Assembly (NCBI GenBank): GCA_029856085.1
Contig: JAHQWI010000034.1
Coordinates: forward strand, 1 to 57,897
Length of the DNA: 57,897 nt
Reading direction: 5' to 3'
Origin: Promethearchaeia archaeon
Lineage (GTDB): Archaea > Asgardarchaeota > Lokiarchaeia > Sigyniarchaeales > SOKP01
A program made the translations under genes and the position numbers. Shown in pieces: positions 15,455 to 28,620 of this stretch. Position 1 is the first letter of the stretch; each line of letters starts with the position of its first letter. The notes below the pieces were generated by a model. The model searched no databases and was not told the DNA's origin. It was given only the letters and a program-made list of their open reading frames with translations.

Positions 15455-15871
15455 TCATTGCCCCTGAATCTGTACATAAATCCTTCTATTACGAGGACCA
15501 TCAAATTCAGCAAACATTATACCTTGCCATGTTCCAAGCATTAACCTGTTTTCATGGATTAACAATTCAACTGAGTGTCCTATAAGCGAACATTTGATAT
15601 GGGCATCTGAATTTCCTTCTCTATGCTTAAAGGTGTATCCTAATCCTCCTTCATGTGGAATAAGTTTTCCTAAATAGTTACTTATGTCTTTTATTACTGA
15701 AGGATCTGCATTTTCATTAATTGTTATCCCTGCTGTAGTATGAGGTATAAATACTCGACATATACCCTCTTCTATATTTGAATCTCTTACAATTTTATGT
15801 ACTTCATTAGTTACATCTAGAAGTATTTCTCTATCTGGTGTTTTAAGTCCAAATTCTTCAAATTTTATCAT
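15455..15871 (-). CDS. YjbQ/UPF0047 family protein (secondary thiamine-phosphate synthase-like)
   Basis: HTTAGITINENADPSV, HREGNSDAHIKCSL and LGTWQGIMFAEFDGPRNR are the family signature blocks. Confidence 0.85.
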   Translation of the reverse strand: MIKFEEFGLKTPDREILLDVTNEVHKIVRDSNIEEGICRVFIPHTTAGITINENADPSVIKDISNYLGKLIPHEGGLGYTFKHREGNSDAHIKCSLIGHSVELLIHENRLMLGTWQGIMFAEFDGPRNRRIYVQIQGQ

Positions 15872-15916: not shown

Positions 15917-16684
15917 CTATTCATCAAAAGAGCCATGTTTTCCTTTTCCTTGAATAAAGTCTTTACTCCCTTTTAGATGTTCTCCTGCTTCTAAAGTATT
16001 TAAACCATATTCAAACTCTTGAAGCATTGCATCTTTTATATTCAATCCAAACTGACTATAAGAGGATAATCTGTCATTTCTCATACATATTTGTGGAAAT
16101 TCAGCAATCTGTCTTGCTAATTTCTCAGCTTCTTGTCTTGATTGCCCAATATCAACAATTCGATTTGCTAATCCCCAATTATATGCTTCCTCTGCATTGA
16201 CAGGACGCCCTGTAAGAATCATATCTAAAGCTCGACTTAACCCAATAAGCCTTGGAAGTCGAACTGTACCACCATCAATCAGAGGGACTCCAAATCTTCG
16301 GCAAAATACCCCAAATATGGCATCTCTCTCAACTACTCGCATATCACACCATAAAGCAAGTTCAAGACCCCCTGCAACTGCGTATCCTGCTACTGCAGCA
16401 ATCACTGGTTTGGATAACTGCAGTCTTGATGGACCCATTGGACCATCCCCATCTTTTTCTTTTCGATTTCCCCCTCCCTCAGCAATATTTTTCAAGTTTG
16501 CTCCTGAGCAAAAAGTTTCATTTGCTCCCCATAAGACACCAACTAAAGCTTTTTCATCTAATTCAAATTCTCTAAATGCATTAGCAAGTTGATTAGCAGC
16601 ATCTTTATCTACAGCATTTTTCACTTCTGGATTATCAATTATTACTGTAAAAATTGGATAATTCTTTTCGACTCTAATTACCAT
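15917..16684 (-). CDS. Enoyl-CoA hydratase/isomerase (crotonase fold)
   Basis: FCSGANL, the oxyanion-hole segment PVIAAVAGYAVAGGLELALWCD, and GGTVRLPRLIG. Confidence 0.9.
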   Translation of the reverse strand: MVIRVEKNYPIFTVIIDNPEVKNAVDKDAANQLANAFREFELDEKALVGVLWGANETFCSGANLKNIAEGGGNRKEKDGDGPMGPSRLQLSKPVIAAVAGYAVAGGLELALWCDMRVVERDAIFGVFCRRFGVPLIDGGTVRLPRLIGLSRALDMILTGRPVNAEEAYNWGLANRIVDIGQSRQEAEKLARQIAEFPQICMRNDRLSSYSQFGLNIKDAMLQEFEYGLNTLEAGEHLKGSKDFIQGKGKHGSFDE

Positions 16685-16800: not shown

Positions 16801-17898
16801 TTATTTTTGATTTGTTAGATACTGATTCATTTCCATGAAACTACTTGTTCTAATAAGTGCTGCTTTAAGAAATTGGAACCCAATATCATATGTAGAGCCA
16901 TCTCCTCCAATATGAATAACCCAGGGGATATCTCTATCATATAGACCCTTAGCTTTCATGATTTTTTTAGCTGTTATTATGCCATCTGCAACTGTGGCAC
17001 CTGATTCAAATAAGTGATGCACCCAGGGAACATTCCAAGAAGTTACGTTATCTTTCGAAGTGGATACTTCAGAGCAGCTTGTATTATTCACATAAATAAT
17101 ATTATTGCCTGCTACAGCTGTAGCAGCAGTAGCCATTTGATTTAACACCATTCCTGCCCCACATCCAGGACAAAGCCCATGACCTCGTTGTAAATGAGTT
17201 TGAGGAACTAATTTTTTTCTATTTACCCTATATAAATCAATTGGCTTTTCAGCTCCGAATTGTTCAATTAATCCTTTTAATTTTTCATTTCTTTTTTCTG
17301 TTAAATAAATGATTTCATTAATTTCTTTTTCCATGAATTTTGGTTTAAATAAATGTCTAAATCTCCCCATTGATTTTAGGTATTCTACAAATTTATCTTT
17401 ATCAAGATCTAATCCTCGGTAATATGTAAAAACTGGAATTCCATCTTCCACTCTAATAGTATATAACGGCCAATAGCCACAGTCTGTTGCTAATTTTGAT
17501 ATTTTGAATGCGTCAGCAGCTTCATGTCTCCAACCTCTCATACAATCTGAATATGCTTGAATGAATGCAGAACCATTTGATTTGAGAGCATCCATCATCT
17601 TTCCCATAAAATCATTAGGATATGCTGGGTTAACTGTAGCTAAGAAAAGTTTTTTAGTCCCATAGAAAGCGAAGGGTGTAACTAAATCTTGTTTTACTCC
17701 AACCTTTCCAGGTATTTTCTCTCCTGCAGGACCAGTTGTTGTAGATGCGTAAGGAGGAGTTGCTCCACTTTCTTGAATTCCCGTGTTCATAAACGCTTCA
17801 TTATCATAGTTAAAGAATAACACATTGCATTTTCCATCTCTTGCTAAAATATCTTCAAAATTAATTATAGTTCTTTCTGGTTTTGACATTCTATTCAC
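16801..17898 (-). CDS. 2-oxoacid:ferredoxin oxidoreductase beta (TPP-binding) subunit, circularly permuted
   Basis: The canonical C-terminal half (NYDNEAFMNTGIQESGATP...YWPLY...YLKSMGRFRHL) comes first. The canonical N-terminal half (GHGLCPGCGAG...TSCSEV...WVHHLFESGA...IGGDGSTYDIG) comes last. An 8-nt overlap with the alpha gene indicates one operon. Confidence 0.85.
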   Translation of the reverse strand: MNRMSKPERTIINFEDILARDGKCNVLFFNYDNEAFMNTGIQESGATPPYASTTTGPAGEKIPGKVGVKQDLVTPFAFYGTKKLFLATVNPAYPNDFMGKMMDALKSNGSAFIQAYSDCMRGWRHEAADAFKISKLATDCGYWPLYTIRVEDGIPVFTYYRGLDLDKDKFVEYLKSMGRFRHLFKPKFMEKEINEIIYLTEKRNEKLKGLIEQFGAEKPIDLYRVNRKKLVPQTHLQRGHGLCPGCGAGMVLNQMATAATAVAGNNIIYVNNTSCSEVSTSKDNVTSWNVPWVHHLFESGATVADGIITAKKIMKAKGLYDRDIPWVIHIGGDGSTYDIGFQFLKAALIRTSSFMEMNQYLTNQK

Positions 17899-19120
17899 TC
17901 ACCCCAAGAATTTTTTCCTTAGTTTCTCTTACCCCGAGATACATATAAAGTGGACCTTTCATATCAGTTATCGAAGCCATTTTCTTTTTCGCAATATCAA
18001 ATTCATCTCTGGTAACATCTCGACCACCTAAACCCACAATAAAACTTCTAAAGATTGTTCCAAGTGGATAAAGTGCAGTAGCTATGGACATTGAAAAGGG
18101 AGGTAACATGCCATTTAAAGAATCGCTTTTTTCTAGCAGAATAAGCTTTTCTATACCATATTCTTCAATAATTTTTCTTAGTTCTTCATAAGGAAATGGT
18201 CTAAAGGCTCGGATTTTGATTAAGCCAATATCCTTATTTTTAGTCATCCAGCTTATTATATTCCCAGACAATGATCCCATAGTACATATTGCTGTTTTTG
18301 ATGAATTATCCAAATTATAAGTTTCAATTAAATTATATTCTCTCCCAGTTTCTTTTTTAAATTTTTTGAACACATCAGTCATTTGACCCAAAACTGGTTC
18401 TTTAGCTTTATCTAAATTAGCTCTGCCTTCCATAAAATAAGCAGGAGTGACTATTCCACCCCAAGTTCCCGGTTTTGAAGGGTCAATTGTCTCTCTTGGT
18501 TTTTTGGGAGTCATTCTTTTTACAATTTCATCAGGAATTAAAGTTAATTTTTGTACAGAATGAGATATTATAAATCCATCATGAACGAAAATTGTTGGGA
18601 ACAAAGAATCTTCGGATATCATAACTGAAAGTATCGCTGCATCATAGGTCTCTTGAACATTTTCAGAAACGATTATATTCCACCCAAGTTCCGAATTAAC
18701 TTGTGTATATTCCCAAGAATTCCAAATAGATAAATTTGGGGAGTTAAAAGCACGAGCGGAAATCATCATCGTTAAGGGTAATCTCCATCCAACTGCCATT
18801 GGTAGAGCCTCTGTCATCAATAAGTACCCTTGACTTGCTGTAGCAGTAAAAGCTCTTGCTCCTGCGGCACACGCTGCAGTTGAGAAACTTATCGCAGCCA
18901 ATTCAGATTCGACATTTACAAAGGCAGCCTTTAATCTACCTTGATGGACTACATCAGATAATCCTTCTACTGATTGGGTTTGTGGTGTAATGGGAAAAGC
19001 ACAGATAACATCTGGGTCAGTTTGAGTAACACCACCAGCAACGGCATAATTTCCTATCATCGTGGTGGTGATTGGCTCTTTAATTTCTTTAAAAAATAAT
19101 TTCATTGGTTCAATACTCAA
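17891..19120 (-). CDS. 2-oxoacid:ferredoxin oxidoreductase alpha subunit
   Basis: GNYAVAGG...AFPITPQT...VESELAAISF..GAARAGARAFTATASQG-type blocks of PorA/KorA. 409 aa. Confidence 0.85.
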   Translation of the reverse strand: MSIEPMKLFFKEIKEPITTTMIGNYAVAGGVTQTDPDVICAFPITPQTQSVEGLSDVVHQGRLKAAFVNVESELAAISFSTAACAAGARAFTATASQGYLLMTEALPMAVGWRLPLTMMISARAFNSPNLSIWNSWEYTQVNSELGWNIIVSENVQETYDAAILSVMISEDSLFPTIFVHDGFIISHSVQKLTLIPDEIVKRMTPKKPRETIDPSKPGTWGGIVTPAYFMEGRANLDKAKEPVLGQMTDVFKKFKKETGREYNLIETYNLDNSSKTAICTMGSLSGNIISWMTKNKDIGLIKIRAFRPFPYEELRKIIEEYGIEKLILLEKSDSLNGMLPPFSMSIATALYPLGTIFRSFIVGLGGRDVTRDEFDIAKKKMASITDMKGPLYMYLGVRETKEKILGVSE

Positions 19121-19134
19121 TTTTATCTACCTCT

Positions 19135-20118
19135 TTATTCTGGTGCGGCACATGACGCCGGACCTTGTTTTAATCTTTTGCTAATAGCTTCAACTGGACA
19201 AATTTCAAGGCAATTTTGACATGATTTACAATGGAGTATATCAATACCCTTCATGTGCCATAATCCATCCTCTCCCTTTTCTCTAATTATAGAAAAGTCT
19301 GGGCAAATATACCAGCACTGAGCGCAGTCTGTACATTTTTCTTCATCCCAAATCATGTCCCATTCACCCCAAGAACCTGTGTTCACTTGATTGCTTCCTA
19401 TCTCTATAACTGTTTCATCGCAATACCAAACACCTGCTTTATCTAATTCTTTAAAGCCCGGTAACCCCGGAAATACTTGCTGCCATGGAATTTTTGTATC
19501 CATAGTAAGATCTGGATCAAGACCAATATCATAAACACATGTTTCTTCGATTGCTTGTTTAATCGCAGCTACATTTTTTCCAGCAATCTCTCCTTTAAAA
19601 CGGCTCAGAATCGCATCGTCTAAAGCTTCTACCGTAAATATTGGCCCAACCCTAAGAAGAGCGCCAAGTATAATAGTGTTTGTTATATTTCTGCCCAAAA
19701 CTTCTAAAGCGATTCTTGTAGCATCAATAGTGGCGACATTTATATCAGTTCTACCTACGATATTTTGAATATCTTCCTGATTTAATGTTGTATTAACGAT
19801 TAACCATCCTCCCTTAGCTAAACCAGCAGTTACGTTAATTTCACCTAGAAGAGAAGGATCTAATACACAAACAAAATGAGGTGAATATACTTGCTCATTG
19901 GACCTTACGAGATCATCATTTGCGCTAAGTCTCACATAACTTTCAGTAGGAGATCCCATTCTTTCTGCACCAAAAAGAGGTTGGCAAACACCATATCCAT
20001 AAAATGCTTCTACGCATAAGTTTGAAGCAGTCACACCTCCTTGTCCACCTCTAGCGTGAAATCGAAGATTTATAACATTATCCTTTAATAATTCTTTAAA
20101 TTGTTCTGGAGTCAACAT
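19135..20118 (-). CDS. 2-oxoacid:ferredoxin oxidoreductase gamma-delta fusion subunit
   Basis: The N-terminal gamma block is RFHARGGQGGVTASNL. The C-terminus has two ferredoxin-type clusters, CTDCAQCWYICP and CKSCQNCLEICP. Confidence 0.85.
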   Translation of the reverse strand: MLTPEQFKELLKDNVINLRFHARGGQGGVTASNLCVEAFYGYGVCQPLFGAERMGSPTESYVRLSANDDLVRSNEQVYSPHFVCVLDPSLLGEINVTAGLAKGGWLIVNTTLNQEDIQNIVGRTDINVATIDATRIALEVLGRNITNTIILGALLRVGPIFTVEALDDAILSRFKGEIAGKNVAAIKQAIEETCVYDIGLDPDLTMDTKIPWQQVFPGLPGFKELDKAGVWYCDETVIEIGSNQVNTGSWGEWDMIWDEEKCTDCAQCWYICPDFSIIREKGEDGLWHMKGIDILHCKSCQNCLEICPVEAISKRLKQGPASCAAPE

Positions 20119-27753: not shown

Positions 27754-28620
27754 TTATTTTATAATTTTCTTATTTTGTGCTTTAATTCGAACTTGCTCTA
27801 TTTTTTTACTAAATCCTTCCCGCTCCTCTTCAACAAATTCCCCGCATATAACAATCCCTTTCTTGAAATCAAAAGTTGCTTGATGAGGGGGCCAATCAAC
27901 CTTAATCCTAATTTGCTTTTTTAACCATTCTATCATCTCTACAGCATCACCTAATTTATTTTTAGAACCATATTGGACAAAACAAGGAACAAGCACTTCT
28001 ATAAAACTGAATCCTTGATTGTCTATGCATTTAAAAATACTTTTTTGTAATCTAAGTGTGTCATATCCAGGCCATCTAGCGACATATGTCGCTCCTGCCG
28101 CAGCTGCTAGACTTACTAAATTGAAGGGAGGTTCCACATTTCCATATGGTGTTGTTTGAGTAATGTCGCCAACCTGACTTGTAGGGGCTACTTGTCCTCC
28201 AGTCATGCCATATATATTGTTATTAACACAGAGAACAGTTATCTCTACATTCCTTCTAGCAGCATGGATAAAATGATTCCCACCTATAGCAAAAAGATCT
28301 CCATCTCCCGATAAAACTATAACCTTTAATTTAGGATTTGCTAATTTTATACCCGTCGCAAAAGGTATAGCTCTCCCATGTGTAGTATGGAAGGCAGGTG
28401 CTTTAAAACAGCCACTAGATCGACCAGTACATCCTATGCCAGACACAATGGCATAATCCTTAGATGTGAGTCCTCTTTCTTTTAGACAGCTTGTAATTGA
28501 TGTAATTACTGTTCCAATTAAACAACCCGGACAAAAAATGAATCGGTTTAAATTTAACATATCACTTAAGGGATGACCAAGTGCTTCCGGGGGGATTGAT
28601 ATTTGATCTGATGGACTCAT
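27754..28620 (-). CDS. 2-oxoacid:ferredoxin oxidoreductase beta subunit (canonical domain order)
   Basis: CPGC...GIGCTGRS...SGDGDLFAIGGNHFIHAARRNVEITVLCVNNNIYGMTGGQ, with the TPP motif in the normal N-to-C order. Confidence 0.9.
   Translation of the reverse strand: MSPSDQISIPPEALGHPLSDMLNLNRFIFCPGCLIGTVITSITSCLKERGLTSKDYAIVSGIGCTGRSSGCFKAPAFHTTHGRAIPFATGIKLANPKLKVIVLSGDGDLFAIGGNHFIHAARRNVEITVLCVNNNIYGMTGGQVAPTSQVGDITQTTPYGNVEPPFNLVSLAAAAGATYVARWPGYDTLRLQKSIFKCIDNQGFSFIEVLVPCFVQYGSKNKLGDAVEMIEWLKKQIRIKVDWPPHQATFDFKKGIVICGEFVEEEREGFSKKIEQVRIKAQNKKIIK

Follow-up and report, generated by a model that had tools for sequence, protein, structure and literature searches.

The described systems closest to the one considered here are the pyruvate:ferredoxin oxidoreductase (PFOR) of the archaeon Methanosarcina acetivorans, the oxalate oxidoreductase (OOR) of Moorella thermoacetica and the homodimeric PFORs, all of them 2-oxoacid:ferredoxin oxidoreductases (OFORs). 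In canonical OFOR beta subunits of the PorB/VorB/OOR-beta type (COG1013, arCOG01601) the motifs follow the collinear order CxxC - C - GDG - DNE..NTG - C - YWPL/GRF.HL. The characterised archaeal PFORs have two or four subunits according to a PFOR diversity review (14 Nov 2026), the text of which contains none of “permut”, “Asgard” or “Loki”. This report concerns the beta-subunit gene of an OFOR-like operon in a stretch of 57,897 nucleotides from a Promethearchaeia archaeon (GenBank assembly GCA_029856085.1, contig JAHQWI010000034.1, positions 1 to 57,897), hereafter the window. The motifs of its product do not follow the canonical order.

The operon consists of three genes on the minus strand in the order gamma-delta, alpha, beta; the beta open reading frame (ORF), 16801..17898, is the last of them. 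Going by the sequence, we consider it highly probable that this ORF encodes the permuted and functional beta subunit of a three-subunit OFOR, and that the permutation had a single origin, likely by duplication, fusion and trimming.

Chain order and parts of the beta subunit

In a phmmer run against all PDB chains, residues 26-196 of the protein matched residues 119-282 of the M. acetivorans PorB (9bt4_C, 296 aa; i-E 4e-25), and residues 229-350 matched its residues 3-115 (i-E 4e-18). The same swapped pattern of two stretches was obtained on the OOR beta subunit (5c4i_C). The NCBIfam model of PorB (NF008819) is likewise split in two, with profile positions 119-285 at the front of the protein and 5-121 at its back. 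Of the Pfam model TPP_enzyme_C only the second half (profile 72-150) was matched, at residues 23-114 and just below the cut-off. In a further comparison canonical PorBs were aligned to the beta protein concatenated with itself (P0001+P0001). They ran collinearly, nearly end to end, across the C-to-N junction of the doubled protein, and this was also true of two paralogues from the same genome. In the best case, residues 15-303 of the 305-residue extein of P0126 were aligned with doubled positions 239-583 (38% identity, E 9e-61). Only one large gap interrupts the doubled alignment: at the junction, the C-terminal tail and the N-terminal extension together insert 34-37 residues.

An earlier note on this DNA had claimed that the canonical halves are swapped, and phmmer, NF008819 and the doubled sequence all agree with it. 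The hidden Markov model scan that it had proposed returned NF008819 in two swapped pieces and profiles that are not collinear; domain matches show the KorB-like gene (27754..28620) to be normally ordered, as the note had stated. In the beta subunit the motifs run DNE..NTG - C - YWPL/GRFRHL - CxxC - C - GDG. The new termini fall between the helix after GDG and the strand leading to DNE, i.e., inside the motif GDG-x(n)-N; this loop presumably sits at the cofactor-distal end of the sheet. The division of the thiamine diphosphate (ThDP) motif between the new chain ends was thus rightly noticed, as both matches and alignments place GDG at the back and N at the front. All these comparisons show the beta ORF to be a PorB-type beta subunit in cleanly circularly permuted form, with a chain order that no described PorB, VorB or OOR-beta shares.

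The ORF has 365 codons from the GTG at 17898; the real start is probably the ATG at 17889 (362 aa), because the homologues begin with MSKPER and GGGGTGA lies 8-12 nt upstream of this ATG. The ATG is located 1 nt past the alpha stop codon. The 8-nt overlap with alpha described earlier therefore exists only with the GTG start and disappears with the likelier one, the coupling being tight either way. In the numbering from the GTG, and with all coordinates on the minus strand, residues 1-24 (17827..17898) form a new N-terminal extension that has no counterpart in canonical PorB and stays unaligned; its model contains a short strand (9-13) and a helix (14-18), with a predicted local distance difference test (pLDDT) value of ~92 over residues 11-20. 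The former back half of PorB follows (residues 25-196, 17311..17826; the match to 9bt4_C 119-282 and NF008819 119-285). To it belong the C-terminal domain YWPL...GRFRHL, C119 as the fourth ligand of the cluster, and the later half of the ThDP (PP) fold, in which N30-Y-D-N-E-A..N38-T-G lies. Canonical PorB alignments and the model assign residues 197-228 overall (17215..17310) to the former C-terminal helix (~190-214) and a very short connector. The former front half (residues 229-350, 16849..17214; 9bt4_C 3-115, NF008819 5-121) carries three cluster ligands (C243, C246, C275), the earlier half of the PP fold, and G332-D-G, then the helix DIGFQFLKAALIR. A new C-terminal tail (residues 351-365, with the stop codon at 16801..16848) is conserved in the family alignment with the consensus R-[ST]-S-S-F-x-x-[MQ]-N-x-Y. 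The protein had been said to end just after KAALIR; this needs correction, as the conserved 15-residue tail comes after KAALIR. The stop codon is followed by a T-rich, terminator-like tract.

The structure was predicted using AlphaFold2 with a 20-sequence alignment. The model is one compact globule (mean pLDDT 73.8, predicted template modelling score 0.82) with a long helix 190-214, a strand 215-224 and C-terminal helices 341-352 and 354-362. In a Foldseek search against the PDB the top match was again PorB 9bt4_C (E 1e-10), followed by OOR beta and the single-chain PFORs. The fold should be that of PorB, judging from the homology of both halves.

Distribution, conservation and origin

The source phylum was sampled with 400 genomes and a carrier threshold of E <= 1e-80. 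The permuted beta subunit is present in 130 of them, full-length and collinear at 50-99% identity, in frames of 356-414 aa that are intact in nearly all 130; the distribution of the partner alpha is identical. All carriers but one belong to the class of the window (families f1-f7). The genome of the lone carrier outside it (G075:C23/C29) is 8% contaminated, and its copies, 89% identical, lie on short contigs; contamination is the probable cause. Submitter labels (Thor-, Hermod-, Hod-, Odin-) overstate the range, since kinship coding puts the carriers in a single class save for this probable contaminant. A contig of a metagenome-assembled genome (MAG) labelled “Candidatus Nanopelagicaceae bacterium” (L055, DATKTW010000155.1) holds the Asgard operon at 82% identity, which looks like binning contamination.

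Among 5.8 billion clustered proteins there are >100 full-length collinear homologues of 359-368 aa and 53-98% identity, from JGI, ENA, NCBI and Logan assemblies. One-genome-per-species collections contain relatives in 140 species; the best 80 of the 140 were inspected, and 80/80 are collinear across residues 1-365. The operon recurs in three closed genomes, those of Ca. Harpocratesius repetitus (MCF2138868.1), Lokiarchaeum ossiferum B-35 (NEF87_002873, UYP46588.1) and Promethearchaeum syntrophicum MK-D1 (DSAG12_00808, QEE14985.1), two of which derive from cultures. Misassembly is in practice excluded because these closed genomes carry the same operon. A search of other Asgard genomes for the permuted form, as suggested in the earlier note, was productive: the order is shared by the 130 genomes of the phylum sample and by the three closed ones. 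The beta subunits of the latter (L089:4807-5922 in Harpocratesius, L090:3166-4404(-) in L. ossiferum, L091:3426-4565(-) in MK-D1) have a ~12-residue acidic insertion in the C-terminal domain (e.g., TVPGMAKPENEEDFIGTDDE), which is missing from the protein of the window.

The family alignment of 20 diverse members, down to 53% identity, has 100 invariant columns, including C119, C243, C246, C275, G332-D-G and N30-Y-D-N-E-A..N38-T-G. All four proximal [4Fe-4S] cysteines match the ligands of the D. africanus PFOR (C243/C246/C275/C119 = C812/C815/C840/C1071), and N38 aligns with its active-site N996. The proportions of replacement and silent differences (pN/pS) were compared in 300 random pairs of 81 coding sequences; synonymous sites being saturated (pS ~0.73), these figures compare proportions and do not stand for a true dN/dS. 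They amount to 0.13-0.16 in both cores, 0.29 in the N-terminal extension, 0.23 in the connector and 0.22 in the C-terminal tail. On these ratios, replacement changes are strongly suppressed, the new tails included. The earlier opinion that the gene is not obviously a pseudogene is borne out by the invariant ligands, the low pN/pS, the intact frames and the expression in MK-D1 (given below).

In a maximum-likelihood tree of 24 de-permuted members and 37 canonical betas, the permuted sequences form one clade (support 100/100) on a long stem (1.27 + 0.27 substitutions per site), and no canonical sister to it is supported. A scan of 1.84 billion representatives (50% identity) returned one full-length collinear representative (412 bits) and fragments, the best canonical one scoring 195 bits. 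Since there is one clade in the tree and a single representative at 50% identity, we presume a tight family of single origin; the permutation would be a single event close to or at the root of the Loki-type class. With the partner alpha as query (E <= 1e-70), the phylum's other classes yielded no non-permuted orthologue, i.e., no “before” state. A search of the phylum with the closest canonical sequence, P0126 with its intein removed, gave only ordinary PorB relatives (<=59% identity, 302/400 genomes) and no sister group.

The old termini were extrapolated from six canonical PorB alignments. This puts the former end of the chain at ~216-223 and its former start at ~217-227, with a connector of -3 to +5 residues. 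The helix 190-214 is the ordinary C-terminal helix of PorB and not a linker, because the canonical alignments run through to ~216-223. A route consistent with this junction would be a tandem duplication of beta, loss of the stop codon between the copies with their in-frame fusion, and trimming of the outer halves. We lean towards it as the most likely route because the old termini are joined head to tail almost seamlessly, and for the same reason the tandem duplication and truncation proposed in the earlier note stays the best model.

Canonical relatives have inteins near this place. In the closest canonical PorB representatives, P0126 and P0132, an intein of ~545 aa lies between “...FTYV” and “CYDNEAYMNTG”, and P0142 has two, one after GGDGA and one inside YMN|TGIQ. 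The three sites are within 6-30 residues of the permutation break and correspond to beta residues ~25-40 and 332-340. An intein-mediated route to the permutation is a speculation; no intein remnant is visible in the new tails of the permuted beta subunit, and there is no sign of a causal link.

Function, substrate and the weighing of alternatives

The beta subunit would be the ThDP- and [4Fe-4S]-binding subunit (equivalent to domain VI) of an enzyme composed of a gamma-delta fusion, alpha and beta. Its chain opens in the loop after the GDG helix; the later half of the PP fold (DNE..NTG, the fourth cysteine) comes next, then the YWPL/GRFRHL domain and the terminal helix. This former C-terminal helix is joined almost directly to the former N-terminus, where CxxC...C and the earlier half of the PP fold lie, and the chain closes after GDG, a helix and the 15-residue tail. 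The folded subunit would keep the PorB fold, its Mg-ThDP site being assembled from both chain ends. In the manner of a PorABCD-type PFOR, the enzyme is expected to oxidise a small 2-oxoacid with coenzyme A (CoA) and to pass electrons via three [4Fe-4S] clusters to ferredoxin. We regard this CoA-dependent oxidation as most likely because the cofactor ligands of beta and the catalytic residues of alpha are all kept.

The alpha subunit gene (17891..19120, minus strand) has the domains POR_N and PFOR_II by Pfam and NCBIfam. The fused gamma-delta gene (19135..20118, minus strand) has a POR gamma domain and a 2x[4Fe-4S] ferredoxin (Pfam POR and Fer4; NCBIfam PorC/PorD/OOR-delta). Alpha lies directly upstream of beta on the same strand in all 66 loci with enough flank, and the gamma-delta fusion adjoins alpha in 59 of 61. 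In an alignment to 9bt4_B, 5c4i_A and 1b0p_A, alpha keeps T45, E73, R123 and I132, which correspond to T31, E64, R114 and I123 of the D. africanus PFOR, and the motif around T45, FPITPQT, is identical to that of the M. acetivorans PorA. Residues 135-138 of alpha (18707..18718, minus strand) read SWEY, where PorA of M. acetivorans and the D. africanus PFOR have DHQD; the alphas of ~70 permuted-beta loci have [ST]-W-E-[FY] in this position, just after the substrate-contacting Ile.

The best family matches of the subunits are PorA, PorB and PorC/PorD, and none of them reaches the equivalog cut-off. For beta the scores and cut-offs in bits are 204.9/405 (NF008819, PorB), 170.4/405 (NF008818, VorB), 175.6/590 (NF045792, OOR-beta) and 21.1/21.9 (PF02775); splitting into two pieces roughly halves the model scores. 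For MK-D1, Suppl. Table 4 of Imachi et al. (PMC7015854) enters DSAG12_00808, 00809 and 00810 under “2-oxoacid/pyruvate degradation”, as the beta, alpha and delta/gamma subunits of PFOR. Their expression values (286, 372 and 314) are similar to those of other catabolic genes in the table, the substrate assignment rests on annotation, and the swapped order is unremarked there.

A number of findings weigh against our reading, some of them against the fold and the role of the enzyme and others against the proposed route. Low confidence in the model is limited to the cofactor loops (pLDDT <50 at residues 34-76, 243-246, 275-284 and 334-336). Foldseek, which depends on sequence order, covers only one half of the protein (189 columns on 9bt4_C, ~190-235 across the matches); we ascribe this to an order-dependent aligner meeting a permutant. 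Several near-complete genomes of the same genus are without the permuted operon, and every Loki genome checked encodes a Kor-type enzyme besides two canonical PorB-like genes, so the permuted OFOR is not indispensable and is one of several. The canonical genes of the source genome are G000:C148:19533-20411(-) and G000:C31:3083-3961(-) (384 and 371 bits on NF008819, cut-off 405), and MK-D1, L. ossiferum and Harpocratesius have two apiece. As the curated cut-offs of PorB, VorB, OOR-beta and TPP_enzyme_C are all missed, the beta subunit is a divergent lineage and its substrate is not readable from homology. Concerning the route, a profile-profile scan of the N-terminal extension and the C-terminal tail against the rest of the family alignment found no statistically significant duplicated remnant at the new termini (top z-scores 2.9-4.3, the best windows not being those predicted), and the best 150 representatives of the 1.84 billion scanned include no tandem beta-beta fusion. 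One could combine the coexisting canonical genes, the absence of the operon from some complete genomes of the genus and the scores below all curated cut-offs into a picture of a decaying or non-catalytic relic without ThDP and cluster, i.e., a pseudogene or structural partner, with the canonical PorAB paralogues doing the work. We find this very improbable: the four cluster cysteines, GDG and DNE..NTG are invariant among members down to 50% identity, replacement changes are strongly suppressed, the reading frames are undamaged in nearly every genome, the catalytic residues of alpha are retained, and the expression in MK-D1 is on par with other catabolic genes. A mis-join or rearrangement in the source MAG, which is indeed fragmented (214 contigs, 80% complete), has a practically negligible chance, given that 130 species genomes, each assembled independently, and three closed single-contig genomes agree with the beta ORF in order, frame and length, and that >100 protein clusters from JGI, ENA, NCBI and Logan are collinear with it.

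The negative results concerning the route bear on the claim, made in the earlier note, that a short helix present at both ends (EDILAR and KAALIR) is the footprint of a duplication. The spacing F/L-x3-L-x-R is present at both ends, as is x-N-[EQ]-x-hydrophobic; neither recurs above chance, and by the profile scan the helix is not significant as such a footprint. Fission into half-genes with reordering and re-fusion, or another recombination route, would agree with the lack of a significant remnant and of tandem fusions among the best 150 representatives. It would also agree with the inteins of close canonical relatives within 6-10 residues of the break, which imply that the region tolerates interruption. 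We consider it unlikely all the same: the old termini are joined essentially without a linker (-3 to +5 residues) and split half-genes were found in none of the 130 carrier genomes, so that duplication, fusion and trimming is still preferred. As to the substrate, pyruvate is the first candidate, and we give it about an even chance; 2-oxobutyrate or a branched-chain 2-oxoacid is possible. The wider alternative, a 2-oxoacid other than pyruvate (2-oxobutyrate, branched-chain, aromatic, glyoxylate) or oxalate, is somewhat short of even. It is suggested by the failure of every subunit to reach its equivalog cut-off, by SWE[FY] in alpha instead of the DHQD of PFOR, by the layout of the Moorella OOR, whose beta family is second best at 175.6 bits, and by the enoyl-CoA hydratase gene downstream in 45 of 80 loci. 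On the other hand, alpha, beta and gamma are best matched by PorA, PorB and PorC, the FPITPQT of alpha is as in the M. acetivorans PorA and lacks the arginine of the OOR YPIRPYT, and the MK-D1 genes are assigned, by annotation, to the oxidation of pyruvate or 2-oxoacids (PMC7015854).

The genes just downstream of the operon encode an enoyl-CoA hydratase (15917..16684, minus strand) and a YjbQ/UPF0047 protein (15455..15871, minus strand), and such neighbours are found downstream in 45/80 related loci, possibly pointing to a connection with acyl-CoA metabolism. In the closed genome G279 (family f4) the permuted beta (G279:C1:1502548-1503600) and an alpha-like gene (G279:C1:2045952-2047169) are ~540 kb apart. 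The locus G258:C34:1148-3226 has a 715-aa frame in which alpha residues 1-320 are joined directly to beta residues 22-363, by a deletion-fusion or an assembly error.

Annotation, significance and comparison with known systems

Neither a permuted OFOR beta subunit nor an intra-domain permutation in any ThDP enzyme was found described in the main texts searched, and no family model with the permuted beta order was found. No described subfamily with the permuted form was found; the existence of one had been named in the earlier note as counting against its reading. NCBI records name the beta subunit, and in MK-D1 alpha too, a “hypothetical protein”, and the JGI label of the homologues is “pyruvate/2-oxoacid:ferredoxin oxidoreductase beta subunit”. 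Metabolic reconstructions from Asgard MAGs can miss an OFOR because beta is “hypothetical” and the Pfam and NCBIfam scores are under the cut-offs; automated reconstructions of this kind feed syntrophy models of eukaryogenesis.

We believe that the finding bears on the enzymology of ThDP/Fe-S proteins, on protein evolution and on the metabolic annotation of Asgard archaea. A natural, ancient and selected permutation inside the ThDP fold would be a test case for the role of chain connectivity in such enzymes and in protein evolution; the GDG...N motif that it divides is common to ThDP enzymes. The enzyme would be placed in the central catabolism (from 2-oxoacid to acyl-CoA and reduced ferredoxin) of the archaea closest to eukaryotes, and direct testing is possible, as MK-D1 and L. 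ossiferum are both cultured and carry the operon. A bolder idea, which we regard as rather improbable, is that the permutation, which placed the chain ends at the base of the ThDP beta-alpha-beta unit, is not neutral, and that the two conserved, selected tails, the fused gamma-delta and the SWE[FY] of alpha define a distinct Lokiarchaeial class of OFORs with the new termini as a lineage-specific surface. Such a surface might serve, e.g., to dock a partner redox protein, to control cofactor loading, or in assembly; if so, what is probably the main pyruvate oxidiser of cultured Asgard archaea would differ in mechanism or regulation from all characterised PFORs.

The M. acetivorans PorB (9bt4_C; NF008819) is the best match of the permuted beta subunit in both sequence and fold. 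They have in common the four cysteines, GDG, DNE..NTG and the C-terminal YWPL/GRF.HL domain, and the alpha subunit shares with PorA of this species the active-site residues of FPITPQT, the Glu and the Arg. Relative to PorB, residues 119 to the end come first and residues 1-115 follow, with ~21-24 new N-terminal and 15 new C-terminal residues. In contrast to the four-subunit archaeal PFOR, gamma and delta are fused here, and the score of beta is half the PorB equivalog cut-off. The Moorella thermoacetica OOR (5c4i/5exd; NF045790-92) has the same three-subunit layout and the same gene order, i.e., gamma-delta fusion, alpha, beta. Its beta subunit is the second-best match, in two swapped pieces, but is itself collinear; its alpha has an Arg in YPIRPYT where this alpha has Thr45, and the OOR cut-offs are all widely missed. 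In the OOR structures this Arg binds the second carboxylate. Domain VI of the homodimeric PFORs (D. africanus 1b0p; Moorella 6cin) has C812, C815, C840, C1071 and N996 in the positions of C243, C246, C275, C119 and N38 of beta; unlike the permuted beta subunit, it is collinear and part of a single chain with the domains I-II-III-IV-V-VI-VII.

The PYR and PP domains are said, by Duggleby in 2006 and by Vogel and Pleiss in 2014, to occur in varied orders or on different chains across the transketolases, decarboxylases, 2-oxoacid dehydrogenases and OFORs. This known shuffling moves whole domains and keeps the ThDP core and site, whereas here the cut is made inside the PP domain, between the halves of GDG-x(25-30)-N.

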